Assembly: GCA_965224255.1 (NCBI GenBank) | Contig: CBDCYO010000005.1 | Location: 963,223 to 1,027,222 of the forward strand | DNA: 64,000 nucleotides | Source of the DNA: Dehalococcoidia bacterium | GTDB lineage: Bacteria > Chloroflexota > Dehalococcoidia > UBA6926 | Direction: 5' to 3' | Shown here: one piece after another, positions 10,352 through 49,722 of the stretch | Position numbering within the stretch: position 1 is the first letter of the stretch | Layout of the letters: every line of letters starts with the position of its first letter | Notes under the pieces: generated by a model | Seen by the model: only the letters and a program-made list of their open reading frames with translations | What the model was told of the DNA's origin: nothing | Databases searched by the model: none | Program-made: the position numbers and the translations under genes

Positions 10352-13300
10352 TCAGACGCGCGCCCCGGCCGGCAGGGACGACAGCTCTGCCAGCGAGGCA
10401 ACGATGTCGGTGGTACGAAGGCTGACCGTCGTCACTCGGTGCAGCAGGTCGATGACGTGTTCCTTATGATCCGCAAAGCGATAGCTGTTGAAGTGCTCCC
10501 GAATCGTTGGGTCGCGAGGCGGCTTTTCTTTGTACTGATCGATGATCCACTCGAGGGCGCTGCGGTTACCCAGGCGATACTCCCAGGCCCCGGACGGCAC
10601 ATCGTGCAACGTCGTCTGCTCATCCAAGCGGATGATGCCCCGCCCCGTGTCCGCCCTCAGCATGGCCTTGGGCGTGGCACCCTCGCCACGACCCGCCAGA
10701 ACCGTGTCGACGCGCCTCAGGGGATACGGGTCCGCCGACTCAAACCCAATGTGCACGTCAAGGAGCTCCTGACCCAGGCGCGCCCACTCATGGAAATCGT
10801 CATGGAACGGGAGCCTGGGAAACCCGCGCGTCAGGTCGATGGCGTATTTCTCACGCCAGACGGGGTCATGCAGGGCGGCATAGGTGTACGCGAATATCTG
10901 CTCCGGCGTGATGGACTCGTCATCATAGCGGTCACGGAACTGGCGCAAACCCCATTCCGTGATGTTGCTCACGCGCGTCCCATCCTCCCGGTAGCGATAG
11001 AGGGGGAGGCATTGGGTATCACCAGTGAGATGGAGGTCTGGAAGCCGATTCGTGGCCAAAGCGCGAAACGGTACCGCCCCGGCGATGTTCAGGAAGCAAA
11101 TAACGCGGTTGTCACTTCGGAGGTCCTGGCCAAACATCTCGTAGTGGTTTGCTGTCAGCCTGTCGCTCATTTCGCGCACCGAGGAATAGTGCTTAGCGAC
11201 GAACGGTCTGTAGGAGGCCATTACAGGTGTGGACTCGGAATAATCAATCTTGCGGGATGCTTGAAGGTGGTTCCTAAGGCCCTCACTCCACTTTATTGCC
11301 AGATCGAGATTCCTGTCCCCATTGTCGACTGAAGTATTGAATCTGGCGGCAAAAAATGACGTCTTCGCCCCAAGCTGCCGCTCATCGAAGTCATATACCC
11401 ATTCGTCCCGTGCAGTGACGACGCCAGGGGAATACAGGCCGAACACCGCATTCTCATCTGCACGACTCTTGGCGAGCTTCGTCTCGCGGTTTGCTACGGG
11501 AATCAATGACTCGAAATCAGAATCCGATTGGTTCAGCCAGTTGGCTTTTGCGTCAGGAACAATCTCTGTGAACGGCGTAGCGGCGAGATTAAGCCCCTTT
11601 ACGAACCTGATCTTATCGGGAGCCTTTGTATAATCCGCGACTCTCCCATAGTGAATGCGAAACAGGGAACTCTCGCCCTTACGTACGAGAAAATAGATGG
11701 CGACTCCAACTCGGATCTTGTCTTCAAAGACATTCCCACCTTCACGCCTGCGTCTCTCACCTGAAGTCCGCGCGTTGCCGGTCATGTCGACAAGCCACAA
11801 TTCATTGAATTCTTGCGCCACGATTTTGCGGAAGCCATCGTCCTGGTGCGACTGTAGAAAGGCGCGGTTGGTGACAAACGCGATGATGCCGTCGTCTGCG
11901 AGCCGGTCTGACGCCCAGCGGATGAAGCGCTTGTACATGTCGTACTGTTTCGACTTCTGTGCGGTACTCTTCTTGACGTATGTCTCCTTGATGCGCTGAT
12001 CAATGGCCGGGTATTTCCTGTTTGGATTCAGATCATTCTCGTTCTGCTGGTTGGCGTTGTACGGCGGGTTGCCGATGATGACGCTGATCGTGCGTTCATT
12101 CTGGGTCTGCACGCGCATCCAGTTGTCGACTGAGAGTCCCCCCAGATTGAACCCCGACTGGCGAGTGACGGCTTCGCCCCCCGCGCCACTCTGTTGCCAG
12201 TCCATGTTGTCCAGTGTGTCGACGAAGGCGAGTCCGGGAAATCTGCTGTACGATCCGGTGCGCTCCTTGTAGGTGTATTCGATGTTGAGATTGGCGATGT
12301 AGTAGGGAAGAATGGCCATCTCATTGGCGTGGATCTCATTGTGGTACTTGTAGTCCAGTCGGTCATGGGGCAGGTGGTTGATGAGGCTGGTGATGAACGT
12401 GCCCGTCCCCGTGGCCGGATCAAGGATCTCGACGTTGTCATCCGCCAGCGAGCGGCCAAAGTGCGTCTTCAGCAGGTAATCCGTTCCTTGAATCATGAAG
12501 TCGACAATTTCGTTGGGCGTGTAGACGATGCCGAGCCTGTCGGCGTCTTTCGGGTTGTACGCCTTGTAAAAATCCTCGTAGATCACCTTGAGGAAGGTCT
12601 GCTTTTCCTGAAAGTCGGAGATGGTGTCGGCGGCACGAGCGATTGCCCCGTAGTAGGCCCGCAGGCGGTCAATGCTGTTGCGCCGAACAGCGCCAGTGAA
12701 GAATGTGCCCTCAAGGTCGTTCAACTGGCTGGCGATTGTGTTCTCGCGGTGAAACTGATCCTCGGCAAAGACGCGCAGGAAGATGTCCTTGGTGAGGATA
12801 TGCTGCAACAGCATCTCGCGAACGTCGCCCTCGGAGACATCGCCACCAATGGTCCCGCGGCAATGCTGGAGGAACGCTGCGGCCTTGCCGCGGTAGGTCG
12901 CGTTAGCGGCCTCTGCCTCGTCGATCGTCTCACGGAGGCCGCTCAACACAGTGGGCAGATCAGTGCTGAATTGCCGTTGCGCCCTGCGAAACTCTTCGAT
13001 CTCAGGAAGTTCATAGTCGAGAAATCTCGTTATGAGGCGATGGAGATCGGGCGCCTCCGCCATGTTGGTGCGCATGGCCTCAGCGCCGTTCTGAAAGAGC
13101 ACGGCAACGCGGCTGTCCTCAAAGATGATGTTGCTTCTCGGGTAGCCGCGATTGAGCTTGTTCTGGATCTCCCTGTCAAGGTCGTCCCTGGTATCCTTAG
13201 CCTCCCAGTACCCGCGAGCAAGGCGCAGGCTGTCCTTCACCGTGCCGTCGGGACGGTTCCTGTTCCCCGACTCCAACTCGGGCACGAGGGCAAGGCGTTC

Positions 13301-13438
13301 AGGATGATTCCGGCAATAGCCGTCAAGGCATACTTCAAACGCACGCCTGGTTGAGGATTCGTTGGCTGACCCACCATAGGTGATGAGCCTGTTCAGTTCC
13401 TCGTGATAGGCATCAATGTGTGGGTAGGCGGAGGCCAT
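10352..13438 (-). CDS. Type IIG restriction-modification enzyme, MmeI-like (N-terminal PD-(D/E)xK endonuclease + gamma-class N6-adenine methyltransferase + C-terminal target-recognition region)
   Basis: 1028 aa. N-terminal D-X9-E-X-K (KDSLRLARGYWEAKD). SAM motif I LDPATGTGTF. Motif IV IIGNPPYNANQ (NPPY). Long C-terminal region without motifs (TRD). No separate M, S or R gene adjacent. Confidence 0.7.
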   Translation of the reverse strand: MASAYPHIDAYHEELNRLITYGGSANESSTRRAFEVCLDGYCRNHPERLALVPELESGNRNRPDGTVKDSLRLARGYWEAKDTRDDLDREIQNKLNRGYPRSNIIFEDSRVAVLFQNGAEAMRTNMAEAPDLHRLITRFLDYELPEIEEFRRAQRQFSTDLPTVLSGLRETIDEAEAANATYRGKAAAFLQHCRGTIGGDVSEGDVREMLLQHILTKDIFLRVFAEDQFHRENTIASQLNDLEGTFFTGAVRRNSIDRLRAYYGAIARAADTISDFQEKQTFLKVIYEDFYKAYNPKDADRLGIVYTPNEIVDFMIQGTDYLLKTHFGRSLADDNVEILDPATGTGTFITSLINHLPHDRLDYKYHNEIHANEMAILPYYIANLNIEYTYKERTGSYSRFPGLAFVDTLDNMDWQQSGAGGEAVTRQSGFNLGGLSVDNWMRVQTQNERTISVIIGNPPYNANQQNENDLNPNRKYPAIDQRIKETYVKKSTAQKSKQYDMYKRFIRWASDRLADDGIIAFVTNRAFLQSHQDDGFRKIVAQEFNELWLVDMTGNARTSGERRRREGGNVFEDKIRVGVAIYFLVRKGESSLFRIHYGRVADYTKAPDKIRFVKGLNLAATPFTEIVPDAKANWLNQSDSDFESLIPVANRETKLAKSRADENAVFGLYSPGVVTARDEWVYDFDERQLGAKTSFFAARFNTSVDNGDRNLDLAIKWSEGLRNHLQASRKIDYSESTPVMASYRPFVAKHYSSVREMSDRLTANHYEMFGQDLRSDNRVICFLNIAGAVPFRALATNRLPDLHLTGDTQCLPLYRYREDGTRVSNITEWGLRQFRDRYDDESITPEQIFAYTYAALHDPVWREKYAIDLTRGFPRLPFHDDFHEWARLGQELLDVHIGFESADPYPLRRVDTVLAGRGEGATPKAMLRADTGRGIIRLDEQTTLHDVPSGAWEYRLGNRSALEWIIDQYKEKPPRDPTIREHFNSYRFADHKEHVIDLLHRVTTVSLRTTDIVASLAELSSLPAGARV

Positions 13439-14218: not shown

Positions 14219-15451
14219 CTAGAGGGGAATATCGTCCGGCGATTCCAGTCTGAACGCACGGTGAAGGGCACGGACGGCATCCTCCACACGCTCCTGATGC
14301 ACCACGCACGTCAGGCTGATTTCAGCTGTTGTGATCATCTCGATGTTGACGTCGGCGTCACGGAGCGCGCGGAACATTGCACCCGCGTAGCCTGGCGCAT
14401 TGTTTAGCCCCGCGCCAATGATGCTGACCTTTGCCAAATGATCGTCGACTGTCACATCTGCCGCACCAATATCCTCACGAATCACCCGCATCTGGTCCAG
14501 AGTGGCCGGCAGATCTGCCAGCATCACGGTGAAGGAGAGGTCACTGAGACCATGTTGACCGGCGTTTTGCACGATGATGTCGACACTGATACCTGCATCG
14601 GCGAGTGGGGAAAAGACATTGGCCGCGATGCCAGGCCGATCCGGCACGCCCAGCACGGTAACCCGTGCGATACCGGCATCATGCGCAATCCCCCGCACCT
14701 TGTTGCGATTCTCCATCAATTCTCCTCCGTGAATGCGTGTGCCGCCAGACTCATCGGCGAGACGCGAGGCCACCAGGATGGGCACATCGTAGACCCAGCC
14801 GAGTTCGACGGCACGGTTGTGCATGACGCGTGCGCCCGCACTCGCCATCTCCAACATCTCGTTGTACGCGATGTCTGTGAGGCGGCGGGCTTCCGGGACG
14901 ATGCGCGGATCCGCGGAGTAGATGCCGTCAACGTCCGTGTAGATCTCACAGATAGGCGCACGCAGTTCGACGGCAAGCGCCACGGCCGTCGTATCGGACC
15001 CGCCCCGCCCGAGTGTCGTGATCTCCATGTCATCAGTCGTGCCCTGAAAGCCGGCGACAACGACAATGTTGCCCCGGTCGATCTCCTCGCGCAGCCGCTT
15101 TGGTTCAATCTGCGTGATACGGGCACGGGAATAGTCCGTGTCGGTCCGGATGCCCGCCTGAAAGCCGCTGAGGCTGACCGCGCCGAGGCCAAGATCGCGC
15201 AGTGCCATCGCCAACAGCGCACCGGAGACCACCTCACCCGTCGAGAGCAGCAGATCCATCTCCCGCGGCGCGGGGTTGTGTGAGACGCGACGACCCAGTT
15301 CGATGAGCTGATTCGTCGTCTGCCCCATCGCCGAGACGACGATGACAAGGTCATCTCCGGCGTGGCGCTCACCTGCCACGCGCTTGGCGATACGGAGGAT
15401 ATGATCGGCGGACGCAACGGAAGTCCCACCGTATTTCTGTACCCTGAGCAT
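14219..15451 (-). CDS. lysC: Aspartate kinase
   Basis: MLRVQKYGGTSVA N-terminus, amino-acid kinase fold and two C-terminal ACT-like segments. Start chosen at MLRVQKYGG (ATG 15451-15449), 10 nt after the thrB stop. Confidence 0.85.
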   Translation of the reverse strand: MLRVQKYGGTSVASADHILRIAKRVAGERHAGDDLVIVVSAMGQTTNQLIELGRRVSHNPAPREMDLLLSTGEVVSGALLAMALRDLGLGAVSLSGFQAGIRTDTDYSRARITQIEPKRLREEIDRGNIVVVAGFQGTTDDMEITTLGRGGSDTTAVALAVELRAPICEIYTDVDGIYSADPRIVPEARRLTDIAYNEMLEMASAGARVMHNRAVELGWVYDVPILVASRLADESGGTRIHGGELMENRNKVRGIAHDAGIARVTVLGVPDRPGIAANVFSPLADAGISVDIIVQNAGQHGLSDLSFTVMLADLPATLDQMRVIREDIGAADVTVDDHLAKVSIIGAGLNNAPGYAGAMFRALRDADVNIEMITTAEISLTCVVHQERVEDAVRALHRAFRLESPDDIPL

Positions 15452-15461
15452 GGTCGTCTGC

Positions 15462-16391
15462 CTAGTGAACGACGTACGCGCCGCGCTCAGACGGTGCCAG
15501 GACATGCACGCGCCCGGCAAGGTTGAGAGTCCGCGCCGACTCTTTCATGGCAGTCGCGACAGTATCAGTCCGCTCCGGTGGGGACATGGACAGTATCGTG
15601 GGGCCGGCGCCGGAGAGGAACGCCGTGTATGCGCCTGCCGCCTTGGCCGCACGCGTCAGAGGCGAGAGCCCAGGCACGAGCTCCGCACGGTAGGGCTGAT
15701 GCAACCTGTCCTCAGTTGCCAACGCGAGATCAGCCCACTGGTGCGTCATGAAGGCCCGGACGAGTAAGGCCGTGCGCGCCACATTGAATGAGGCATCACG
15801 CAAGGGAACGTGGCGAGGGAGAGCCGCGCGTGCCTTCGCCGTCGGAAGTTCGTCGTCTGGCACGAACGCGATGCACGCCAGATCACCGGGGAAAGCCAGT
15901 TGACGCGCAACAGGATGATCATCCTCCGACATGATGGCGACGCATACGCCGCCCAGAAGGGCCGGCGCGGCGTTGTCCGGATGACCCTCCAAGTGCGTTG
16001 CATCCGCCAACATATCGTCCACGGCGTATTCATGTTTGCTCAGAACGCTGGCGGTGAGTAGTCCCGCGGCGGTCGCGGCGGCGCTGCTGCCTAGCCCACG
16101 CGCCAGCGGAATCGCGTTATCGACAGTGGCGCGCATCGACGGCAACTCCACGCCATGGCGTGATGCCCCGAGCGCGGCAGCGCGAAAGATGAGATTGTCG
16201 TCAGCCGAACCCGCCAGGGCGTCCGCGTCTGGGCCGTTCAGCACGATATCGTTTTCCCCCGCGGACTCAATACGCACATCAAGCCAGAGGTCAAGCGCCA
16301 TGCCGACAGCGTCAAAGGCGGAGCCAAAGTTCGCCGTTGAGGCAGGGGCGCGGACTGAAAAAGGCGGGAATTCCCGGGTCAGAGTCGCCAT
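15462..16391 (-). CDS. thrB: Homoserine kinase (GHMP kinase)
   Basis: PASTANFGSAFD N-terminal motif and GHMP motif PLARGLGSSAAATAAGL. Start placed at MATLTREF (ATG 16391-16389) rather than the longer track ORF. Confidence 0.8.
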   Translation of the reverse strand: MATLTREFPPFSVRAPASTANFGSAFDAVGMALDLWLDVRIESAGENDIVLNGPDADALAGSADDNLIFRAAALGASRHGVELPSMRATVDNAIPLARGLGSSAAATAAGLLTASVLSKHEYAVDDMLADATHLEGHPDNAAPALLGGVCVAIMSEDDHPVARQLAFPGDLACIAFVPDDELPTAKARAALPRHVPLRDASFNVARTALLVRAFMTHQWADLALATEDRLHQPYRAELVPGLSPLTRAAKAAGAYTAFLSGAGPTILSMSPPERTDTVATAMKESARTLNLAGRVHVLAPSERGAYVVH

Positions 16392-16882
16392 GAATCCAGT
16401 ATAAAGACAATCAGGCGGGAACATTCCATGCGCTACACATCGCACACCCGCCCACGTGGACTGTCCGCCGACAGTTTCGGCGACAAATCGCTTTACATCG
16501 ACGCACAGACGTGCTGGATTGTCACTCCCAACGAGAGCGCGTCCGGCTCGCCCATGAGTCATCGCGCCGTCGCAGGCTGCACTCGTTCACGTATATCAAG
16601 AGGGTCAAGAATGTCCAACCCAATAACATCGGCACTGGATTCTGAAGGACAACGAACGCACATAGACAGTGCGGATAGGGGCGCCCGATACTCAGGCTTT
16701 TCGCCTCACGCTGATTGTGAATTGTATCCGGTGTTCAGACGGCAGGGCCAGCGCTCGTCGTTTTCGCATATGCCGAACCGAATGAACTGCTCACCCCCAT
16801 CTGGGGAATCGGACCTGCACAAGAGAAAGAACAGGAATGGCTAGCGTTCTATGAAGATCAGCGAAGCGGCTGTCCTGCATGC

Positions 16883-17368
16883 GTGACGTGGAGGCGGAGT
16901 GAGCCGCATTTCCATAACGAATCCCCAGCCCCGAACGATTCTCCCTTCTTCACAGAAATCCTTTGGCACTGTTCCACATGTCTGCAGCCGCACGTCTTTG
17001 ACCTTCTCAAAAATGCCGCTCGGGTTGCGAGCGAGGTATCCCTCTATGGTCGTGCCATTCGGCCGGACATCACACTGTTCGATGATAAGGACACGCCCGT
17101 GGCCTTTTTCGAATTCAAAAAGACCAACCTGAGCAAGAAAGTGGAACTCATCGCAAAAGAGAAGGGCATTCCGTTGTTTGTTATAGACGTGACCGAAGAT
17201 GGCGCAGAACGCCGAATGCTGCACAATCCTCAGGATAGATGGTGGAAGCACGCGCCGGAGGTGACCGAGGAGACCAGTTCATTCCTTGAAGCTTCGGGTT
17301 CCCTGAAGCTTCGGGTTCCCTGCCAGGTCCAAGCATGGAACGACTCTTCGATGAGAACAGCAAATTGA
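16883..17368 (+). CDS. Hypothetical small protein with a candidate PD-(D/E)xK nuclease motif (lower-GC islet)
   Basis: RPDITLFDDKDTPVAFFEFKKT matches the D ... (hydrophobic)3-E-x-K pattern of restriction-endonuclease-fold proteins; preceded by a Cys/His patch (HCSTCLQPH). Local GC ~50-52% versus ~64% elsewhere. An antisense ORF (16841..17251) competes. Confidence 0.4.
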   Translation: MTWRRSEPHFHNESPAPNDSPFFTEILWHCSTCLQPHVFDLLKNAARVASEVSLYGRAIRPDITLFDDKDTPVAFFEFKKTNLSKKVELIAKEKGIPLFVIDVTEDGAERRMLHNPQDRWWKHAPEVTEETSSFLEASGSLKLRVPCQVQAWNDSSMRTAN

Positions 17369-17494
17369 CGTGGTCAGGAATCACTGACGTGCCGAATCCT
17401 CAGAACGCGTCCGAGTGGGCGACCGTACCCTCCCCAAGGATAGGGCCGTATCTCCTAGCGACGTGGAGCTCGCTGCGCCGCGATTCGCAGAAGG

Positions 17495-17533
17495 CTCAGT
17501 ATCGCCATTGGGGAAATAGCGATACTGAGCCTG
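17495..17533. terminator. Perfect 13-bp inverted repeat GGCTCAGTATCGC-(13 nt)-GCGATACTGAGCC between convergent genes; candidate bidirectional terminator
   Basis: Hairpin lies 11 nt beyond the stop of the minus-strand gene 17544..18326 and 127 nt beyond the stop of 16883..17368; weak U-tract on the minus side. Confidence 0.35.
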
Positions 17534-17543
17534 TCGGCGGAAG

Positions 17544-18326
17544 CTAGATGATAAAGATCTCCGGGTTGTGCGCCGCCACGGCTTCCCATAGTCGCATAGC
17601 CCTTTGTGTTCCTCCCTGCTCAGCCGGATCAATCACCATCCTGCCGGAACGTGTATAGGAGCCGATGGTTTGTAGTTCGGTGCGGTTGGCGCTCCATATC
17701 CATGGGCGATTCTGCGCAGTCAACAGGGTGGCCTCCGTGAATTCACGATCAAGCGGCACTGCTCTGAGCAACCGCAAAGAGGCCCTTGGATCTCCTTTCC
17801 ACACCCAGAACTTGTTGAGCGCGCCTGAATGGTAGGCTGCACGCCGGATATGGGCGTTCGCGCCAAACACTGTGAAGTCGCGTCCCTTGGGGAACTCTGT
17901 CACGTCCCGCAGCACCTCTGTCACACGAAAGAAGCCGATGAGATAGAACCCCGCCGCGTTGTCCTCCGCGACAAGCCGGGCAAGAAAGATCAGGTAATCG
18001 CCGGGGCCACATGACGTCAGGCCCGCTGCCCGTCCCGTCGTCTGCGGGTTGTCGCCGTATGTGAACGTGCGGAACTCCGGGTCATCGTGCAGCCGATCAT
18101 TCCACCGCGAAACGGAGGCATAGTCTGCGAGCGTCCTATCCGGGTCGTTGAAGGCTGTGAGTTTAGGGTACGCTGGGAGGGTGGGTGACCACCATCGTCG
18201 TTCCTCCGGTATGGGCAGAAACTCAAATGTTCCGTCGGCGAAGATGGGACTTCGGAGAGAGCCGTGAGAGGCGTTTACACCGACGTTGACAAGGAAAAGA
18301 CGCGCGGCAGGATCAACAGAAACCAC
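17544..18326 (-). CDS. Hypothetical protein, 260 aa, no recognisable family
   Basis: Long ORF with reasonable codon usage and no motif I can assign. Convergent with the PD-(D/E)xK-like ORF. GC somewhat below flanking genes. Confidence 0.5.
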   Translation of the reverse strand: MVSVDPAARLFLVNVGVNASHGSLRSPIFADGTFEFLPIPEERRWWSPTLPAYPKLTAFNDPDRTLADYASVSRWNDRLHDDPEFRTFTYGDNPQTTGRAAGLTSCGPGDYLIFLARLVAEDNAAGFYLIGFFRVTEVLRDVTEFPKGRDFTVFGANAHIRRAAYHSGALNKFWVWKGDPRASLRLLRAVPLDREFTEATLLTAQNRPWIWSANRTELQTIGSYTRSGRMVIDPAEQGGTQRAMRLWEAVAAHNPEIFII

Positions 18327-18358
18327 GGAGGGCTCCGTTCAGTGGCCTCGGGGGTCGT

Positions 18359-19603
18359 GTGCGGATAGGGGCGGCATTCTGTGAGCAATCACGTATGAAT
18401 GGTAGCAGTGATGCGCAAAGCGCGACGCAGGCCGTGAAGGACGCCGCCACACGGGCTGGGTTCGACGTCGTTGGCATTGCGTCCGCAGATGTCTTTCGTG
18501 AGCGCGGAGAGACCGCGAAGGAGCGCGTATCCGAAGGTTTGATGGACGGCCTGCCCTGGTTCACTGAAGAGCGCGTCGAACGCGGCATGGACCCGGAAAC
18601 CCTGATGCCCAATGCCCGTTCGATCATTTCCCTGGCCTTGAGCCATCACTACGAAGGTTCCGCCGATCCCTCGGACACCCTGCCACGAGGCCGCATCGCA
18701 CGCTATGCCTGGGGAGAGGATTACCATCGCGTATTCGCCCGCCAGGTGCGCTCTTTCATCGCACAGTTGCCCGATGTGACGGGCGAAAAGGACATCGGGA
18801 CGAAGTGGTACACAGATACGGGGCCACTGCTTGACCGTGCCGTCGCGGAACGTGCGGGCGTCGGCTGGTTCGGGAAGAACACCAATATCCTCACCGCGCA
18901 GGGCTCATGGATGCTGTTGGCGCAGATCATCACGACGCTTGACCTCATTCCGGATGAGCCTCTGAAGAAAACGTGCGGCGCGTGTGCCATTTGCATTGAC
19001 GCGTGTCCAACAGCCGCAATCGTTGCGCCCTATGTGGTGGACAACCGCAAGTGCATCTCGTATCTGACAATTGAAAATCGCGGCAGTATTCCACGTGATG
19101 TCCGTGCCCTGATTGGTGACTGGATTTTCGGCTGTGATGTGTGCCAAGACGTGTGCCCCGTAAACCGTAAGGCGCGCGTTGGCGCAGCCTACGCGGATCT
19201 GACGCGGGATGCCGAAAACCGTGCCCGCCCGGAGTTGGTGGAGCTGCTGTCTCTTGATGACGCCGGATTTCGAGAACGCTTCAAGCAGAGTTCGGTCCTT
19301 CGAGCCAAACCTGAAGGAATGCGTCGCAATGTCTGTGTCGCGCTTGGCAACATCGCCGACACCACGACAGTCGTTCCCCTCACCCATGTCATGCGTACGG
19401 ATTCCTCACCCATCGTACGTGGCCACGCCGCGTGGGCCCTTGGACGCATCGCTGACACCGCAGCCGTGACGGCGCTTGAGAACGCGTTTGCAGAAGAGAC
19501 GGATGCCGGAGTTCTGGGAGAGATCAGAGAGGCCCTGCGTGAGGCGAGAGCCCGGCATACTGACTCCCAACAGGACGGCGAGAAACGCTACCTCCCCGTG
19601 TAA
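18359..19603 (+). CDS. queG: tRNA epoxyqueuosine(34) reductase QueG with C-terminal HEAT-repeat extension
   Basis: Two 4Fe-4S ferredoxin motifs (CGACAICIDACP; CDVCQDVCP), CISYLTIE motif, and C-terminal HEAT-like repeats (HAAWALGRIAD). Confidence 0.85.
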   Translation: MRIGAAFCEQSRMNGSSDAQSATQAVKDAATRAGFDVVGIASADVFRERGETAKERVSEGLMDGLPWFTEERVERGMDPETLMPNARSIISLALSHHYEGSADPSDTLPRGRIARYAWGEDYHRVFARQVRSFIAQLPDVTGEKDIGTKWYTDTGPLLDRAVAERAGVGWFGKNTNILTAQGSWMLLAQIITTLDLIPDEPLKKTCGACAICIDACPTAAIVAPYVVDNRKCISYLTIENRGSIPRDVRALIGDWIFGCDVCQDVCPVNRKARVGAAYADLTRDAENRARPELVELLSLDDAGFRERFKQSSVLRAKPEGMRRNVCVALGNIADTTTVVPLTHVMRTDSSPIVRGHAAWALGRIADTAAVTALENAFAEETDAGVLGEIREALREARARHTDSQQDGEKRYLPV

Positions 19604-21159
19604 AGCTCCCCGTCAGGCCGAAAGGATGCATAGCCGAACCAGTACGCGACGTGTCCGGAGACGCGCGTGTACACCGTGCCATTGGGGCCGCGCAGACCGT
19701 CCGCGGCACTCCGCCATTCGTGGCCGGCTCCATCGACAAGTCTTCCATCAGAGTCACGCATGAACGAGAGTTCGCCACGTTGGTAGGCCTGCACACCGCC
19801 GCCGTCATCGCTGACGAGGACTATGCTCGTCTCTCCGAGGGCGTCGTTCAGAACCGGAGTACCACGCAGCAGATCAAGTGGATAGGCCTTGCTTGCACCG
19901 GTCCCTGTCACCGCCACAAACACTTGCGATTTCGGCCCCAAACGGGCGTCTCTGCCACCGGGGCCGCCGGGAAACATGAGATGCGGGCTGGAGAAGTAGT
20001 CAGCGTAGGCCGCGCCGGGTGTGCCCGGCGTGGCGTAGTTTCGGTCATAGCCCGTTTCCAGCGAGAGCACCGTCGTATCCGGGTGTTGCCTACTCCATTC
20101 AGCCCACGTGGTCAGCGTGACAGGCAGGATCGGCAGGGTGACGTTTTCACCAACGTGCTCACCGACAACAGGCTGCCCGGTGAACTGATTCCAGAGATTG
20201 TATATGCCCATGTCATACATGAGCTTGTTTGATCGATAGAGCAGCCCTGACGAGCCGAATGTGTAGGGCTCCTGACCAGCTGGACGCCGAGTGTCATACA
20301 GAATGCCAGAGCCGCACAGGGTGCAGTATGCGAGTGTAAACGGCTGGTCACCAAGGACGTCATTCGCCATCTCATGCCAGTTCATAATCCGCAGCGGGTA
20401 GGCGCGCGCTTCACCGTCGAGGTAGACGCCAAAAACCTGCTCATCTGACTCGAGGTAGTGGGCCTCCTCCAACGGAATCGTCTTGGGTTTGTCGAGCGAG
20501 GGGATGGCGTCCACGTGGACGCCGCCCCAGACGATCTCCTCAAGCCGTATCGTATGCGTGACTCCGTCCTCCGGCAGAAACATGCGGAAACGGGGATCGA
20601 CGGTGCTCAGTACCTCTCCTTTCCACCAGGCGTAAGGAGCCGGCGCCGCGTATTCCGGATGTGCCTCCACCCATTCAACCCACTGGAACCAATCCGTTCC
20701 AATTGCCTCCACGCCCGTCAACTGACGAAGGGAATCACCGATGTGGCGCCGATAGAGCATTCCGTATGGTGGGATGCCCAGCATGTCCACGAGGAAGGGC
20801 GCGCTGTGCGGATCACGCGTCAGACGAATGGAATCGAGGCCTGGGGCGAGAAACGCGTCGATTGCCGAATCCGTCGTTTCGTCCGGCCGCTCGTACAGGA
20901 CGAGTGTTAGGACATCTCTGAGTTGAACGGGCGTGAGCGGACGCGCCTCCTGTGTACCGATGGCTGAAGTTTGCGTCGGAGACGGTGTCGACGTGGTGGT
21001 TGGCTTAGGCGACCTCACGGGGAAGGGCGCGTCGCCAGTGGCTCCTGGTTGCTGGGTCGCGTCCGGTATGCCCGTGGCGGTGTCATCGCCACGGGCGGTG
21101 ACCAGAAGCCCAACCATAGGGAGCAGAAGCGCAATGGACACACTGATGAATCGTCTCAT
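19588..21159 (-). CDS. Secreted DUF3179-family protein
   Basis: N-terminal signal peptide (MRRFISVSIALLLPMVGLLV); Pro/Thr-rich linker; conserved region with AYCTLCGSG typical of DUF3179. Confidence 0.65.
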   Translation of the reverse strand: MRRFISVSIALLLPMVGLLVTARGDDTATGIPDATQQPGATGDAPFPVRSPKPTTTSTPSPTQTSAIGTQEARPLTPVQLRDVLTLVLYERPDETTDSAIDAFLAPGLDSIRLTRDPHSAPFLVDMLGIPPYGMLYRRHIGDSLRQLTGVEAIGTDWFQWVEWVEAHPEYAAPAPYAWWKGEVLSTVDPRFRMFLPEDGVTHTIRLEEIVWGGVHVDAIPSLDKPKTIPLEEAHYLESDEQVFGVYLDGEARAYPLRIMNWHEMANDVLGDQPFTLAYCTLCGSGILYDTRRPAGQEPYTFGSSGLLYRSNKLMYDMGIYNLWNQFTGQPVVGEHVGENVTLPILPVTLTTWAEWSRQHPDTTVLSLETGYDRNYATPGTPGAAYADYFSSPHLMFPGGPGGRDARLGPKSQVFVAVTGTGASKAYPLDLLRGTPVLNDALGETSIVLVSDDGGGVQAYQRGELSFMRDSDGRLVDGAGHEWRSAADGLRGPNGTVYTRVSGHVAYWFGYASFRPDGELYTGR

Positions 21160-43573: not shown

Positions 43574-43981
43574 ATGCCACGTGATCCGGCGACGCTGCGC
43601 TTCAGTCGCGAGCATGAGTGGGTCGTGCAGGACGAGGCCGATCCGACGTCGGCCACGATTGGTGTCACGGACTACGCGCAGGGCGAACTCGGTGACGTCG
43701 TCTACGTTGCTCTACCGGCTCAGGGCGTATCACTGACACAATTCGAGACGTTTGGTGAGATCGAGTCAGTCAAGTCCGTTTCAGACCTCTTCGCGCCTGT
43801 TGGCGGCACCGTGACGGAAGTCAATTCCGCGCTGGAAGACCACCCTGAACTCGTCAATGATGACCCGTACGGCGAGGGATGGATGGTACGTGTAACGCTC
43901 ACCGATATCCGCGAGGTGCAGCGTCTCATTTCTCACACGGCGTATCAGGAATTCCTGACAGAGCTTGGCGGCAGTGACTAA
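43574..43981 (+). CDS. gcvH: Glycine cleavage system H protein (lipoyl carrier)
   Basis: FSREHEWV ... lipoyl-lysine motif EIESVKSVSDLFAPVGG; GGAGGG RBS before ATG 43574. Confidence 0.85.
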   Translation: MPRDPATLRFSREHEWVVQDEADPTSATIGVTDYAQGELGDVVYVALPAQGVSLTQFETFGEIESVKSVSDLFAPVGGTVTEVNSALEDHPELVNDDPYGEGWMVRVTLTDIREVQRLISHTAYQEFLTELGGSD

Positions 43982-46868
43982 TCAGCGCTCGCCCGCCCCC
44001 TTCGTGCCACTGACGGCCGCGGATCGAGAGCACATGCTTGATGCCATCGGCCTGAATGATGTCGATGACCTGTTCACTGACATCCCTGCTGACTATCGCA
44101 ATCCATCTCTCAACCTGCCGCCTGCGCTTTCTGAACACGATGTCGTCAGCCATATGCGAGATCTGGCCGCCAAGAACGTATCGTCAGATGCTGCGCCGTC
44201 GTTTCTGGGCGGAGGATTCGCGCGTCATTTTGTGCCGAGTGTGGTTGGCGCCATCACATCACGTGGTGAATTCCTGACGCCCTACACGCCCTACCAGCCA
44301 GAAGCCAGCCAGGGCATCCTTCAGGCGCTCTTTGAGTATCAGACCGTTGTGTGTGACCTCACGGGCATGGATGCCTCCAACACCGGCATGTATGACGGAG
44401 CGAGTGCCCTGGCGGAAGCCGCCCTCATGGCGTGTCGGCTCACGCGCCGCCATGTCGTCGCCGTGCATGCGAGTGTCTCCCCCATCTATCGCGCCGCGCT
44501 TGAGACGTATGCGGGTGCACAGGAGATTGCCATCACCGATGGACTCGATACCGCCGCTGAGGGTGAGCTAGCCTGCCTGCTCGTCCAGCAGCCGTCATAT
44601 GACGGCGTCATCGATGACGCCGTCGACGATCTGGCCGAGGCGATTCACACGCGGGGAGGGCTGCTCATCATGGCCGTGGAGCCAGTTTCCCTTGCTGTGC
44701 TCAGGCCGCCCGGCGACTACGGCGCGGACATCGTTGTCGCAGAGGGCCAACCGCTGGGTATCGCGCTGGGATTTGGCGGACCGGGAGTTGGATTCTTCGC
44801 ATGTCGGAACGAGTACCTGCGACAGATGCCCGGCCGCATCGTCGGACGAAGCGTTGATGCCGCCGGGCGCGACGCGTTCGTGCTGACGCTTCAGACGCGT
44901 GAGCAACACATTAGACGCGAGAAGGCGACGTCCAATATCTGCACGGCCGAGACGCTTGCGGCGATTGCCGTTGCCGTTCACACTGCCGTCCTGGGGCCAC
45001 ATGGCCTGCGCGAAATCGCCTTCACCTGCTATCAGGCAGCGCACCACGTGGCACGACGCATCACCACCCTGCCCGGGTATGCCCGTCACGGCGGCGATAG
45101 CGCGCGCTTCGTCAAAGAATTCGTCGTCGAATGCCCCATCCCACCTGCTGAGGTGAATCGGCGGCTGTGGGAAGACTACGGAGTCATCGGCGGCATCGAC
45201 GTGTCAGACCGTGTCCCGAACGGCCTTCTGCTGTGCGTAACGGAGACAAACTCCGCCGCAGATAGTGATCGCCTTGTTTCCGCTCTCGCGGACATCGCGG
45301 GCGTATCCGAACACGCGACGGCCGTTTCCTCAGCTGATCGCACACTGGCAGACTGGCACAGCATCACCACGCCCCCGGCCGGCAGAGGGGGCATCCTCGC
45401 CGGCGAGGATGCCCCCTCTGGTCAGACCCCGCTGTTATTGGACATCTCGCGGCCGGGGCGACGTGGCGTTACGACGCCTGCACCCGTCGTTCCGCCAACT
45501 GAGCCACCATTGCCGTCCACCCTGTTGCGCCGCGAATTACGGCTGCCGGAGGTGAGTGAGCTGGACGTCATGCGCTATTTCACCCGCATCAGCCAGTCCA
45601 ACTACTCCGTTGATACGACTTTCTATCCGCTGGGCTCATGCACGATGAAGTACAACCCACGCGTGAATGAAACCGTCGCCGCCATGCCCGGCTTCGCCAA
45701 CGCGCACCCCTACCAACCGGCCGAAACCTCGCAGGGAACGCTGGAGGCGCTCCATGGCCTGCAAGAGATGTTGGCCACCGTCGTTGGGATGGATGCAACG
45801 AGTCTTGCGCCGTCCGCCGGAGCGCATGGCGAACTCACCGGAATGCTCCTCTTTCGCGCCTACCACCGCAGTCGAGGAGATGACGCCCGCGCCGTCATTC
45901 TCTCCCCTGATTCGTCACACGGAACCAACCCGGCCTCTGCCACAATGGCCGGGTTCACACTCGTGACCGTGCCGACGGACAACGTCGGCAACATTGATAT
46001 GGACGTGCTGCGCTCTCTACTCGGGCCGGACGTGGCCGGCATCATGCTGACAATGCCGACGACGCTCGGGCTCTTCGATCCACAGACGCCGGAGATTTGC
46101 CGTCTCGTGCATGAGGCGGGCGGCCTTGTCTATGGAGACGGAGCCAATCTGAATGCCCTGCTGGGACGTGCGCGGCTTGGCGATCTCGGTTTTGACATCG
46201 TTCACATCAACGTTCACAAAACGTTTTCCACACCACATGGTGGTGGTGGCCCCGGCGCCGGCCCCATCTGCGTGACTGAGCGCCTCGCGGAGTTCCTCCC
46301 CACGCCGCACATTGCACGACGGGCCGATGGTCTGTTTCACCTCGTGAATCCGTCCGGCACGGTCGGCCGCATCGGCTCCGCGGCGGGCAACGTCGGCGTT
46401 CTTCTTCGCGCGTATACATACATCCGCATGCACGGCGCGGACGGCCTGAGAGCGGTCAGCGGCGCTGCCGTCCTGAACGCCAACTACCTTCGTGCCCAGC
46501 TCAGCGAGCACTACGATTTGCCCTATGATCGCGTCTGCATGCATGAGGCGGTGTTTTCCGCCACGCGGCAGCGCCGTGGACGAGGCGTGCGCGCCGGCGA
46601 CATCTGCAAACGGCTCCTCGATTACGGATTCTATGCGCCGACCGTGTATTTCCCGCTGATCGTGGACGAGGCGTTGATGATCGAACCGACGGAAACGGAG
46701 AGTCTGGAGACACTGGACGCATTCGTCGAGGCGATGGCGTCCATCGCGCAAGAGGCATCGGAAAATCCGGACCTGGTGCGCGGGGCGCCGCACACGACAC
46801 CCGTCCGCCGCATCGATGAAACGCTCGCCGCTCGCCGCCCCGTGTTGCGGTGGGCACCGAGAGAGTGA
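43965..46868 (+). CDS. gcvP: Glycine dehydrogenase (decarboxylating), single-chain fusion of subunit-1-like (PA) and subunit-2-like (PB) halves joined by a Pro/Thr/Arg-rich linker
   Basis: 967 aa. N-terminal half begins like GcvPA (LTAADREHMLDAIGLNDVDDLF). After the linker the second half begins like GcvPB (LLLDISRPGRRG ... LPEVSELDVMRYFTRISQSN ... GSCTMKYNP). Confidence 0.85.
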   Translation: MAAVTNQRSPAPFVPLTAADREHMLDAIGLNDVDDLFTDIPADYRNPSLNLPPALSEHDVVSHMRDLAAKNVSSDAAPSFLGGGFARHFVPSVVGAITSRGEFLTPYTPYQPEASQGILQALFEYQTVVCDLTGMDASNTGMYDGASALAEAALMACRLTRRHVVAVHASVSPIYRAALETYAGAQEIAITDGLDTAAEGELACLLVQQPSYDGVIDDAVDDLAEAIHTRGGLLIMAVEPVSLAVLRPPGDYGADIVVAEGQPLGIALGFGGPGVGFFACRNEYLRQMPGRIVGRSVDAAGRDAFVLTLQTREQHIRREKATSNICTAETLAAIAVAVHTAVLGPHGLREIAFTCYQAAHHVARRITTLPGYARHGGDSARFVKEFVVECPIPPAEVNRRLWEDYGVIGGIDVSDRVPNGLLLCVTETNSAADSDRLVSALADIAGVSEHATAVSSADRTLADWHSITTPPAGRGGILAGEDAPSGQTPLLLDISRPGRRGVTTPAPVVPPTEPPLPSTLLRRELRLPEVSELDVMRYFTRISQSNYSVDTTFYPLGSCTMKYNPRVNETVAAMPGFANAHPYQPAETSQGTLEALHGLQEMLATVVGMDATSLAPSAGAHGELTGMLLFRAYHRSRGDDARAVILSPDSSHGTNPASATMAGFTLVTVPTDNVGNIDMDVLRSLLGPDVAGIMLTMPTTLGLFDPQTPEICRLVHEAGGLVYGDGANLNALLGRARLGDLGFDIVHINVHKTFSTPHGGGGPGAGPICVTERLAEFLPTPHIARRADGLFHLVNPSGTVGRIGSAAGNVGVLLRAYTYIRMHGADGLRAVSGAAVLNANYLRAQLSEHYDLPYDRVCMHEAVFSATRQRRGRGVRAGDICKRLLDYGFYAPTVYFPLIVDEALMIEPTETESLETLDAFVEAMASIAQEASENPDLVRGAPHTTPVRRIDETLAARRPVLRWAPRE

Positions 46869-46899
46869 CCGCAGGCACAGAGCAGGGGTAGGTGGGAAC

Positions 46900-49722
46900 A
46901 TGGCCATGCCGCAACCAGGTCCGGATGTCGTGCGAGAGGAGGTCTACAACGTTTCCCTTGCGGAATTGCTGCGAGAGAGGGGCGTTCCTGCACGGGCGGA
47001 ACGGCGGGAACAGCGGGGAACTCCAGACGTGCTGGTGCAGCTATCCCGACACGATCAGATTCTCCTTGAGTGCAAATATGAGGGCGGGCGCGCCACCCTA
47101 GAACGCCAACTCGATGAGCGACTGAAGGCCTACCCAGAAAAGCTGGGCATTGTTGGTGTTATCTACCCGGATCGATTTCGCTATGCGGATGATCCGGCGC
47201 AGGCGCTCGCGGACGCCGATGATCTGGAGTGGTGGCTGCACAGTTCCCAGGGCACGTTTCAGGCGCTGAAGCAACCACGCCGTGGCGGCGTGGCGGATTT
47301 GGCAACGCACATCCCCGGCCTCCCACTTGAGATTGAAGGGACCGACCGTGTTATTGCAGCGACGGCCGCGGTGGGATACGCGCTACAACAATCATCCAAG
47401 ACCATTGGCGCCCACGCGCGCATCGCCTCCCGCATCGCGGCGGTCATCACAGAATCGGATCGCGAGACGAACATGTCTGCCGCGCTGCATATTGGCACGC
47501 TTGTCGTATTCAACGCGTTGGCCTTTCAGGACCGTCTGGCGGAAATAAACGGCAACGTCGAAACCGTTGAGGAGTCGCTGGGCGGCAGCGTGTCGAACCT
47601 CCGCGCCGTGTGGAAGCGCATTTGCGATACCATCGACTATGTGCCGGTCTTTGACCTTGCTGAGCGGATTCTGGCGATTCTAGAGGACGCGCCCAGACCC
47701 GTCGCGCAGGACGCCATTACGCCGTTGCACTGGGCCGTGCGGCAGACGCGCACCATGCAAGGCCATGACCTCTCCGGCCGCCTCTTTCACACCCTGCTGA
47801 GTGATGCCAAGTTTACCGGCGCCTACTACACGTCCATCCCCGCGGCCACCATGCTCGCTCACCTGGTCTTCACCAATTGGCCGCGCGGCGCGGACTGGTC
47901 CGACTATGAATGGCCGGGATCCCTGACGATTGCCGATATCGCCTGTGGCACCGGCACTCTGCTCATGGCCGTCGCCCAGGAGGCGGAGCGGCGTCACCTG
48001 CAGGCCGGCGGCACCAATGCCGCCCTGCTTCACAAAACCCTCGTCGAAAAATCCCTCCACGGGTATGACGTGCAACTCTCCGCGATTCACTTCGCCGCCA
48101 CCAGCCTCGCCATGCTCAACCCGCACATTGAGTTCGACCGCATGAACCTGACTGTGATGCCGTATGAGGTTGACGCCGAGACCGTGCATTTGGGCTCGTT
48201 GGACTTCCTGCTTGATGTGGAGTCCGTGCCGGCGCAGTTCGCGCTGTCACCGGAAATCGCCCCCTCCCCCCCCCCAGATATGGGTGGGCAACGCCTTACC
48301 GGTCAAGGTGTAGGGGCACGGGACGAACGGCGCGCCACTCTGCCGACCCTGGACCTCGCCATCATGAACCCGCCGTTTACGCGGGCAAACAACCTCTTTG
48401 GCGGCCAACCTCCGGTTGAGCGCAAGGTGATACAACAGGAACTCGGGAGAAGGCTGCGTTCCAGAGGCGCATCATCGACCGCGGGGCTGGGCTCCGCCTT
48501 CGTGGCCACTGCCATTCCCAAGCTGCGGGAAGGTGAGGGTCGCCTCGCACTCGTCCTGCCCCTGACCGTCTGCACAGGCCCCTCATGGGCGCAAACGCGA
48601 GAGCTTATCGAGCGCGAATTCACCATCGACTACGTCGTCACGTCACACGATCCCCTTCGGCCGAATTTCTCCGATAGCACCGACCTGTCCGAGGCGCTGT
48701 TGGTCGCGACGCGGCGGCGTGGGGACGCATCGGACGATGAGCACCGGATAACGTTCATCAACCTCTGGCACAACCCGGAAGGTGTGTTCGACGCGCAGCA
48801 GGCGATACGCGCAGCGAGTAACACACCTGCTGCGCACATCGAAGGGCGCGGCTCCACGCTCGTCCGAACGAATACTGAGGACGTGGGCGAAGTCTTCTCG
48901 ATGGCGCAAAAAGAACTGGAAGGCCGCAAGTGGTTCGGCGTTCAGTTCGCGCGGGCGGACGTTGCGCGCATCGCGCTGCGGCTCCTGCGCGACGGTGACG
49001 TGTGGATACCCGGCTCGTTGGGCGTCGGCCACGTCGCGATGGCGCCGCTAGCTGAATTAGGAGATTTGGGCCCGGACGGCAGAAGACTGATGGACGGGTT
49101 TACTCGCACCGATTCAGTCACGGCCTATCCGATGGTCGAAGAGCACGACACGGAGTCTCGAAAGACGCTTGGCACGAGTCCAAACAAGTATTTTGTTCCT
49201 CTTCCGGTTCCTAGAGGTGGTCAGCGGCCTGGGTATGGCGACCACCTGTGGCAGCAGGCGGCACAGCTACTACTCGCGGAGCGGCTACGGCTCAATACCG
49301 CGCGCATCGTGAGCATGTACTGCGACCGACGCGTGCTGTCCAACGTTTTTTGGGAGGTAATAACGGAGAACCCTGCGCAGGACATGGCTCTCTGCCTCTG
49401 GCTCAATAGCTCCTTGGGCGTCCTCGGGATCCTTGCAACGAGAAATACCACAATGGCGAGTTGGGCTAAGTTCAAGAAAGCGGATCTTCAGCAGATGCCC
49501 GTGCTTGATGTGCGCACACTGTCTGAGGGGCAGTTGGCGGAGTTGTCCGCGTTGTTTGATGAGATTGCGGAGATGGAGTTTGAGCGTTTGCCGGCCATGG
49601 TGCACTGTCCGGCGCGGCGCGCAGTGGATGACGGCCTCTCACGGATTCTCGGCCTGCCGGATCTGGCGCCCCTGCGTGAGCTGCTCGCCACGGAGCCGGT
49701 GGTCTCCGGCAAGCGCCTGTAG
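46900..49722 (+). CDS. Second fused endonuclease-methyltransferase (Type IIG-like): N-terminal PD-(D/E)xK, gamma-class N6-adenine MTase, C-terminal recognition region
   Basis: ~940 aa. N-terminal TPDVLVQLSRHDQILLECKYE (D ... E-C-K). Motif I IADIACGTGTL. Motif IV LDLAIMNPPFTRAN (NPPF). Contains an in-frame C10 homopolymer at 48266-48275. Start at ATG 46900 just after the gcvP stop. Confidence 0.65.
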   Translation: MAMPQPGPDVVREEVYNVSLAELLRERGVPARAERREQRGTPDVLVQLSRHDQILLECKYEGGRATLERQLDERLKAYPEKLGIVGVIYPDRFRYADDPAQALADADDLEWWLHSSQGTFQALKQPRRGGVADLATHIPGLPLEIEGTDRVIAATAAVGYALQQSSKTIGAHARIASRIAAVITESDRETNMSAALHIGTLVVFNALAFQDRLAEINGNVETVEESLGGSVSNLRAVWKRICDTIDYVPVFDLAERILAILEDAPRPVAQDAITPLHWAVRQTRTMQGHDLSGRLFHTLLSDAKFTGAYYTSIPAATMLAHLVFTNWPRGADWSDYEWPGSLTIADIACGTGTLLMAVAQEAERRHLQAGGTNAALLHKTLVEKSLHGYDVQLSAIHFAATSLAMLNPHIEFDRMNLTVMPYEVDAETVHLGSLDFLLDVESVPAQFALSPEIAPSPPPDMGGQRLTGQGVGARDERRATLPTLDLAIMNPPFTRANNLFGGQPPVERKVIQQELGRRLRSRGASSTAGLGSAFVATAIPKLREGEGRLALVLPLTVCTGPSWAQTRELIEREFTIDYVVTSHDPLRPNFSDSTDLSEALLVATRRRGDASDDEHRITFINLWHNPEGVFDAQQAIRAASNTPAAHIEGRGSTLVRTNTEDVGEVFSMAQKELEGRKWFGVQFARADVARIALRLLRDGDVWIPGSLGVGHVAMAPLAELGDLGPDGRRLMDGFTRTDSVTAYPMVEEHDTESRKTLGTSPNKYFVPLPVPRGGQRPGYGDHLWQQAAQLLLAERLRLNTARIVSMYCDRRVLSNVFWEVITENPAQDMALCLWLNSSLGVLGILATRNTTMASWAKFKKADLQQMPVLDVRTLSEGQLAELSALFDEIAEMEFERLPAMVHCPARRAVDDGLSRILGLPDLAPLRELLATEPVVSGKRL

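Follow-up and report, generated by a model that had tools for sequence, protein, structure and literature searches.

The 64,000-nucleotide stretch of Dehalococcoidia bacterium DNA analyzed here (contig CBDCYO010000005.1, positions 963,223 to 1,027,222; "the window") carries about 1.8 kb between the genes for homoserine kinase (thrB) and tRNA epoxyqueuosine(34) reductase (queG) that a first-pass annotation, made from the sequence alone, had singled out as a candidate acquired islet of two convergent genes, one for a small nuclease-like protein and one for an unrecognizable 260-amino acid protein. This islet is two unrelated items. The 260-amino acid protein belongs to the Nmad3 family, and its gene is linked to queG; the small open reading frame (ORF) of 161 codons is the middle of a CoiA-like pseudogene that was inserted next to it. 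We hold the anatomy of both items, an Nmad3 gene beside queG and a broken CoiA-like gene, with high confidence, and the best explanation as a whole, in which Nmad3 is a partner of queG and the CoiA-like gene has nothing to do with it, at a probability of roughly 0.7. Both ORFs exist as called (Table 1), and the flanking genes had been named correctly: the product of thrB has the domains of a GHMP kinase, and that of queG scores 336 bits with the equivalog model TIGR00276 (cutoff 200) and contains QueG_DUF1730, Fer4_16, and HEAT_2 domains.

Linkage of Nmad3 and queG

The 260-amino acid protein matches Pfam family PF18754 (Nmad3, nucleotide modification associated domain 3) with 74.9 bits (gathering cutoff 27, E 1e-20), its residues 10–178 aligning with profile positions 2–177. 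To our knowledge, no member of this family has been characterized. The protein has 414 homologs at E ≤ 0.001, most with 94–100% coverage; those with a named source come from Chloroflexi, Dehalococcoidia, or SAR202, and 120 of 120 homologs among the matches listed carry a precomputed PF18754 domain. Depending on the alignment, 23–34 columns are invariant, and all of them are present in the window protein (among others N14, G16, N18, P27, E35, D82, P83, F85, G91, N157, A158, R185, R226, and R229). Conserved motifs are NVGxNASH, HxDPEF, YGD, GANAHxRR, and IGSYTRSxR. The last of these lies in a conserved C-terminal region of ∼80 residues that sets the Chloroflexota subfamily apart from the Pfam family.

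We fetched 80 further Nmad3-encoding loci, which together with a 77%-identical relative make 81 loci besides the window, and used tblastn to find where QueG, ThrB, and aspartokinase are encoded; 77 loci have enough upstream sequence to be informative. Across the loci, Nmad3 identity to the window protein ranges from 77% down to ∼38%. The 77%-identical relative shares the gene order of the window, from queG and Nmad3 through a small gene to thrB and aspartokinase, except that its small gene is a different one. queG lies directly upstream of Nmad3 in 66 of the 77 informative loci. In 26 of these 66, the two genes are divergent as in the window, with gaps mostly of 66–71 nt (a spacing shared by most of the 25 relatives of the divergent type; 68 nt in the window), and the other neighbors are thrB, aspartokinase, and DUF3179. 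In the remaining 40, Nmad3 follows queG in the same direction, mostly after 33–90 nt and once with an overlap, and the other neighbors are guaB-like, prmC, prfA, and hisS. In both arrangements, queG is the TIGR00276 equivalog (336 and 375 bits) and not a reductive dehalogenase paralog.

The only unit that persists across both arrangements is the queG–Nmad3 pair, and a pair that is kept while its other neighbors change is a classical sign that two genes are functionally linked. For an uncharacterized family, this is a solid result of comparative genomics and a modest but testable lead. The first-pass annotation had counted the 260-amino acid gene as part of a candidate horizontally acquired module and had named homologs that are syntenic core genes of known housekeeping function as evidence to the contrary; the gene is indeed syntenic and conserved, but a housekeeping function for Nmad3 is not established.

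Predicted fold of Nmad3

The AlphaFold2 (AF2) model of Nmad3 has a predicted local distance difference test score (pLDDT) of 97. The core is predicted to form a PUA-like β-barrel as in EVE, ASCH, and YTH proteins, and in Foldseek searches of the PDB and BFVD, ASCH proteins rank at the top, weakly. The structures to which it can be compared include EVE proteins (the N-terminal domain of VcaM4I, 6yex; PH1033, 1wmm; and THYN1, 5j3e), ASCH proteins (ZmASCH, 5guq; and YqfB, 9kyf), YTH, and McrB-N. In contrast to EVE, ASCH, and YTH proteins, Nmad3 is approximately twice as large and has large family-specific additions. A sequence search of the PDB gave no match, and no NCBIfam model matched. On the predicted structure, Nmad3 is a distant and elaborated member of the PUA-like fold that is not an EVE, ASCH, or YTH protein by sequence.

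Three Nmad3 homologs of 426–450 amino acids (P0037, P0076, and P0078) possess an extra N-terminal region of ∼160–190 residues, which has neither a Pfam match nor similarity to QueG. The extension contains a motif, YRYLLFVTRYKG...YYVVGYYDL, that is reminiscent of another PUA-like unit.

A possible role of Nmad3 in queuosine metabolism

In known PUA-like proteins, a modified base is flipped out and accommodated in a pocket; EVE, YTH, and McrB-N proteins read the base, whereas ASCH proteins such as YqfB hydrolyze it. A 2026 preprint reportedly identifies ASCH proteins as tRNA ac4C erasers. In α-proteobacteria, EVE genes are linked to the tRNA modification gene tsaD (PMC7641849). Combining the PUA-like fold with the queG linkage, we infer that Nmad3 would bind a modified nucleoside of the tRNA wobble position 34, which could be epoxyqueuosine, queuosine, or a related, possibly free, 7-deazaguanine compound. 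Nmad3 would then be a conserved Chloroflexota partner of queG, encoded divergently here and in a queG–Nmad3 operon in more distant relatives, that either assists QueG by recognizing or handing over its substrate or product or performs an extra step. An enzymatic role is plausible because many of the invariant residues are His, Asp, Glu, Asn, and Arg.

That Nmad3 is functionally tied to queuosine or to QueG at all we judge to be slightly better than an even chance. The more specific proposal, that it is an unrecognized component of queuosine metabolism that binds epoxyqueuosine (oQ) or queuosine (Q) in tRNA or in free form and either is required by QueG or converts Q or oQ further, is tentative and rather doubtful. 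A functional linkage would provide a first testable role for an uncharacterized Pfam family and would add 7-deazaguanine modifications of tRNA to the range of the PUA-like reader fold. It would also suggest that the final step of queuosine synthesis involves lineage-specific biology in SAR202/Dehalococcoidia, which are abundant and mostly uncultured marine and subsurface Chloroflexota. With a place in queuosine metabolism, Nmad3 would be the first protein partner to be connected with this final step.

Several observations weigh against this role. In 11 of the 77 informative loci, Nmad3 has no adjacent queG; the neighbors there are housekeeping or unannotated genes that form no coherent alternative context. 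With Escherichia coli sequences as queries, neither tgt nor queA was found close to Nmad3, be it in the window or in the other loci. The family is not markedly basic (median isoelectric point 7.8), which lends no support to tRNA binding. The fold comparison covers ∼130 of 260 residues at 9–18% identity and Foldseek E ≥ 0.003, and no EVE, ASCH, or YTH model of Pfam matches Nmad3 at E ≤ 1. In the literature searched, we found no paper on Nmad3 or PF18754, no mention of the queG linkage, and no experiment or paper that ties Nmad3 or PUA proteins to queuosine; an earlier bioinformatic note is possible.

The loci that lack an adjacent queG would also fit an adjacency that is simply inherited synteny, with Nmad3 reading or modifying another target such as modified bases in DNA. 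DNA is the target of many PUA-like readers, the family name is phage-derived, other Nmad families have been described in phage base-modification or anti-defense settings, and Nmad3 itself matches the phage protein family phrog_34025 (E 1.8e-12). However, the adjacency survives an inversion and a full change of the other neighbors at Nmad3 identities of 38–77%, the conserved neighbors include no restriction, methylase, or other DNA modification gene, and neither tblastn against a phage collection nor a pattern scan of viral contigs found an Nmad3 relative. We consider this alternative unlikely. It is very improbable that Nmad3 is instead an accessory for maturation of QueG or its cofactors, serving in cobalamin or iron–sulfur cluster (Fe-S) loading or in electron delivery, and not a nucleoside binder. 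The tight and often operonic pairing would suit such a protein, and QueG, which uses cobalamin and Fe-S, is related to the reductive dehalogenases (it matches their RDH subfamily), enzymes that have dedicated accessory proteins. The predicted fold, however, is that of modified-base readers and not that of known corrinoid chaperones or ferredoxins, and the window protein contains a single Cys, a Cys-rich metal-cluster motif being absent from both family alignments.

Table 1. Features of the thrB–queG region, numbered from the first nucleotide of the window
Feature	Position	Strand	Details
thrB, homoserine kinase	15462–16391	−	GHMP_kinases_N and GHMP_kinases_C domains
TATACT, −10-like box	16398–16403	−	Lies 6 nt before the thrB start codon; borders the variable slot on the thrB side
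CoiA-like frameshifted gene	16611–17547	+	∼306 codons once repaired; includes the 161-amino acid ORF (16883–17368)
Pseudogene segment 1	16611–16829	+	N-terminal domain, MSNPITSALDSEGQRTHID...GESDLHKRK; frame 0
Frameshift 1	16821–16838	+	1-nt deletion in a purine-rich run; from codon-by-codon reading of both frames
Pseudogene segment 2	16832–17298	+	Cys/His patch and PD-(D/E)xK-like core (RPDIT ... EFKK); frame 2
Frameshift 2	17282–17315	+	17-nt tandem duplication, TTCCTTGAAGCTTCGGG / TTCCCTGAAGCTTCGGG; from a repeat search, the frame switch mapping here
Pseudogene segment 3	17316–17547	+	C-terminal region with VPSPRIGPYLLA; frame 1, stop TAG at 17545–17547
Hairpin	17492–17532		Arms 17492–17509 and 17515–17532, 5-nt loop
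Nmad3-family gene, 260 amino acids	17544–18326	−	GTG start; GGAG ribosome-binding site 6 nt upstream
Divergent intergenic region, Nmad3/queG	18327–18394		68 nt
queG, tRNA epoxyqueuosine(34) reductase	18395–19603	+	TIGR00276 equivalog; start ATG at 18395

A CoiA-like gene broken by two frameshifts

A word-index search with the 161-amino acid ORF had found only the ORF itself, so that it appeared to be an orphan. This result was overturned when 1.84 billion cluster representatives were searched exhaustively with phmmer, which returned 36 relatives (best E 6e-28), mostly of 250–326 amino acids. The family is rare, with 37 cluster representatives including that of the window, and the example shows that word-index searches may label a protein an orphan where an exhaustive search finds relatives. 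The ORF matches only the middle part of these relatives.

When the relatives are aligned to the DNA by tblastn, family members run collinearly over three frames. In segment 1, residues 1–74 of P0175, P0177, and P0182 match with 50–55% identity, and the N termini of the relatives (xDIITSA...GxRYxG...CxLYPV...KRSSFAHxPNR...GESxxHR) fit the frame that opens at ATG 16611. Family residues ∼73–240 match in segment 2 and residues ∼237–299 in segment 3, the C termini of the relatives reading PxPxxGxYLxA.... At the first frame switch, the conserved spacing from His to Trp in the family motif GESxxHRxxKxxW is 20 nt instead of 21; at the second, removing one copy of the 17-nt repeat restores the reading frame. 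The repaired product of 306 amino acids aligns end to end with a profile built from 10 relatives (322.7 bits, E 1e-100). The first-pass annotation thus had the coding strand right, but the ORF is the central fragment of a longer gene and not a complete one; an antisense ORF at 16841–17251, which it had considered as the possible real gene, is rejected because the homologs back the plus strand.

We find it very probable that the CoiA-like gene is truly dead, and most likely it is a recent pseudogene without present function. Two features of the gene speak against this and would fit an assembly error or a very recent inactivation. The repaired frames contain no internal stop codon, and the first frameshift lies in a purine-rich run, a type of sequence prone to insertion and deletion errors. 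With the end-to-end match of the repaired product, these features would also suit an intact and functional gene whose frameshifts stem from errors of assembly or of the consensus, or from variants within the population, in a metagenome-assembled genome. However, a 17-nt tandem duplication is atypical as a sequencing error, and two family-invariant positions, a Gly and a Cys, are replaced in the C-terminal segment of the profile alignment. Moreover, the two frameshifts are probably real mutations because the window is otherwise covered to 91% by long intact ORFs, one of them of 1028 amino acids. We therefore regard an intact gene as quite unlikely and retain the pseudogene. In the course of events that we propose, a CoiA-like gene would have been inserted between Nmad3 and thrB and later disabled by the 1-nt deletion and the 17-nt tandem duplication.

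The motifs on which a restriction endonuclease fold had been proposed for the ORF, PDITLFDD and VAFFEFKK, are present in its translation, as is the upstream Cys/His patch (WHCSTCLQPH). The family conserves GESxxH, the Cys/His cluster, RPD(I/L)T, and E-F-x-K, and in its alignment, Asp-159 and Glu-174 are invariant and Lys-177 is nearly so (D...E-x-(x)-K motif). The HSDR_N model matches the ORF (E 0.0023) and several relatives weakly and below its cutoff, with E values of 0.002–0.007 overall. AF2 run on the single sequence gave an unusable model of the ORF (pLDDT 41.8), in which the order of secondary structure elements fits the αβββαβ core of PD-(D/E)xK nucleases. The proposed fold was therefore a reasonable call, with the weak HSDR_N matches and the conserved D...E-x-(x)-K motif both fitting a PD-(D/E)xK-like core, but membership is not established. 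NCBIfam gave the ORF one chance-level match far below the cutoff, a sequence search of the PDB gave it none, and the family profile had one chance-level PDB match (E 0.2).

The layout of the family is an N-terminal Cys/His region with GESxxH, followed by RPD(I/L)T ... (I/F)E(F/I)xKSNLS ... IPLFV. The competence nuclease CoiA, with its CoiA_N domain (PF25164) and a PD-(D/E)xK-type domain, is laid out in a similar way, and we take the family layout to resemble the CoiA nuclease core. CoiA_N is present above its cutoff of 26.3 bits in two distant relatives, with 37.6 bits in P0204 and 28.9 bits in P0208. Weighing against the assignment, CoiA_N is found in these distant members only; unlike CoiA, the repaired window protein and its close relatives have no match to the model at E ≤ 1, and the window copy is frameshifted. 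No Pfam model matches the close relatives above its cutoff. The genomic context of the family was sought in two scans of metagenomes, a scan of viral sequences, and a tblastn search of plasmids, none of which gave a match. The ancestral gene is consistent, on its motifs, with a CoiA-like nuclease that had a Zn-ribbon-like N terminus and a PD-(D/E)xK-type domain, and it would presumably have been active as a nuclease. Among the origins first suggested for the ORF, that of a nuclease remnant has stood, in the form of a twice-frameshifted CoiA-like gene.

A variable slot between Nmad3 and thrB

The 1.15 kb from the Nmad3 stop to the −10-like box of thrB show no DNA similarity to any of the 81 related loci. 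In close relatives, this slot can be empty, with only 30–55 nt (L003, L008, L009, L012, L015, L016, L019, and L020). In others it carries a Gp49/HigB-type toxin with an HI1420-type antitoxin (L007, L013, L017, and L018), a putative membrane protein (L005), or a protein of ∼380 amino acids encoded on the minus strand (L004, 8817–9974; L006, 8806–9936; and L010, 9162–10328). All slot cargoes are lowered in guanine–cytosine content (GC; 0.48–0.56 compared with ∼0.61). The cargo of the relatives and that of the window thus share the slot and a similarly low GC but have no sequence relationship, and the window holds a single broken nuclease-like gene, not a pair. From the variable cargo and its uniformly low GC, we conclude that the slot is a small insertion hot spot and that the window cargo is one defective occupant. 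The pseudogene itself is ordinary and matters little; it documents a hot spot that collects toxin–antitoxin and nuclease-type cargo.

Toxin–antitoxin remnants are seen in L001 and L010, and L001 keeps only the antitoxin as a called gene. For the ∼380-amino acid protein, neither Pfam nor PHROG gave a match that reached the reporting threshold. Its N terminus resembles an EVE/PUA domain (GDIFVCYLTRVSRWCGIL) and its C terminus has a nuclease-like AFEIEHT motif, so that, judged by these motifs, it may be a modification-dependent nuclease. Kinship of the 161-amino acid ORF with this protein was considered, and none was found.

The CoiA-like gene is missing from all 81 other Nmad3 loci and, because of this, is not a partner of Nmad3. 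It had been suggested that the two convergent ORFs form one acquired module, a toxin–antitoxin pair or a miniature defense system, that shares a terminator hairpin. The convergent genes with overlapping stop codons (CTAG at 17544–17547), the strong hairpin, the lower GC of the nuclease-like part, and the toxin–antitoxin pairs in the same slot of relatives could be read in this way. We find such a module hardly credible: the two genes do not co-occur elsewhere, Nmad3 is syntenic, linked to queG, and of ordinary GC, and the nuclease-like gene is frameshifted twice. Neither protein matches a PADLOC defense model at E ≤ 1, and a type II toxin–antitoxin system does not agree with genes that are convergent and not co-oriented. 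Horizontal acquisition holds for the nuclease-like ORF, which sits in a lineage-specific, low-GC slot, but not for the conserved Nmad3 gene. The same division applies to base composition: positions 16392–17543 have a GC of 0.553, which ranks among the lowest 2% of equally long windows across the 64 kb, whereas the Nmad3 gene has 0.589 (18th percentile; mean of the window 0.609).

Hairpin and gene boundaries

The hairpin noted between the two ORFs is real and strong but not intergenic, because it lies within the 3′ tail of the pseudogene, in a part that is not conserved. Its inverted repeat of 18 nt is 94% complementary, with 14 perfect pairs, one mismatch, and three more pairs. As minus-strand RNA, it has a predicted energy of −41 kcal/mol compared with −21.5 ± 2.8 for shuffled sequences (z = −7.05). 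The repeat begins 11 nt past the Nmad3 stop codon, and the stem predicted for the RNA begins 14 nt past it; the hairpin is probably a 3′-end or terminator structure of Nmad3, the insertion now separating Nmad3 from thrB. Possibly, it also serves the convergent gene. No clear U-tract follows the stem, and the hairpin was not listed by a terminator scan. Rfam gave zero matches at E ≤ 1 across 15400–19700.

Alignment of N termini with ThrB of relatives places the start of thrB at the ATG at 16391 (MATLTREF...), not at an upstream ATG at 16562. The box TATACT(TAA) also precedes thrB in the empty-slot relatives L003, L008, L009, L015, L016, L019, and L020, and L012 has the variant TATAAT. The start region of queG is conserved in the alignment with relatives, which identifies its annotated ATG as the true start; the GGAG of Nmad3 is conserved among relatives as well, as is the queG leader.

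In this leader (18376–18397), ∼20 nt before the ATG are nearly invariant in 14 relatives, with the consensus ATTCGTGCAACAATCACGT-ATG and the window version ATTCTGTGAGCAATCACGT-ATG. The consensus of the relatives could form a 4-bp hairpin (CGUG-N7-CACG) directly upstream of the start, which has no Rfam match.

A 15-nt exact direct repeat, GTGCGGATAGGGGCG, occurs at 16669–16683 within the pseudogene and at 18359–18373 in the queG/Nmad3 intergenic region. We rejected it as an insertion scar or att site because it brackets the conserved Nmad3 gene too, is not conserved in relatives, and has a blastn E of 0.21 window-wide; the repeat is probably due to chance.

Downstream of queG, a convergent DUF3179-family gene (19588–21159, minus strand), which is a conserved neighbor among close relatives, overlaps the 3′ end of queG by 16 nt (19588–19603). 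Elsewhere in the window, the 1028-amino acid ORF (10352–13438, minus strand) contains an NPPY motif (GNPPYNANQ) and sits in the patch of lowest GC (∼0.535); it looks like a type IIG/YeeA-like N6-adenine DNA methyltransferase-restriction protein and was possibly acquired. Two adjacent plus-strand ORFs (43965–46868 and 46816–49722) of ∼967 amino acids each overlap by ∼50 nt.

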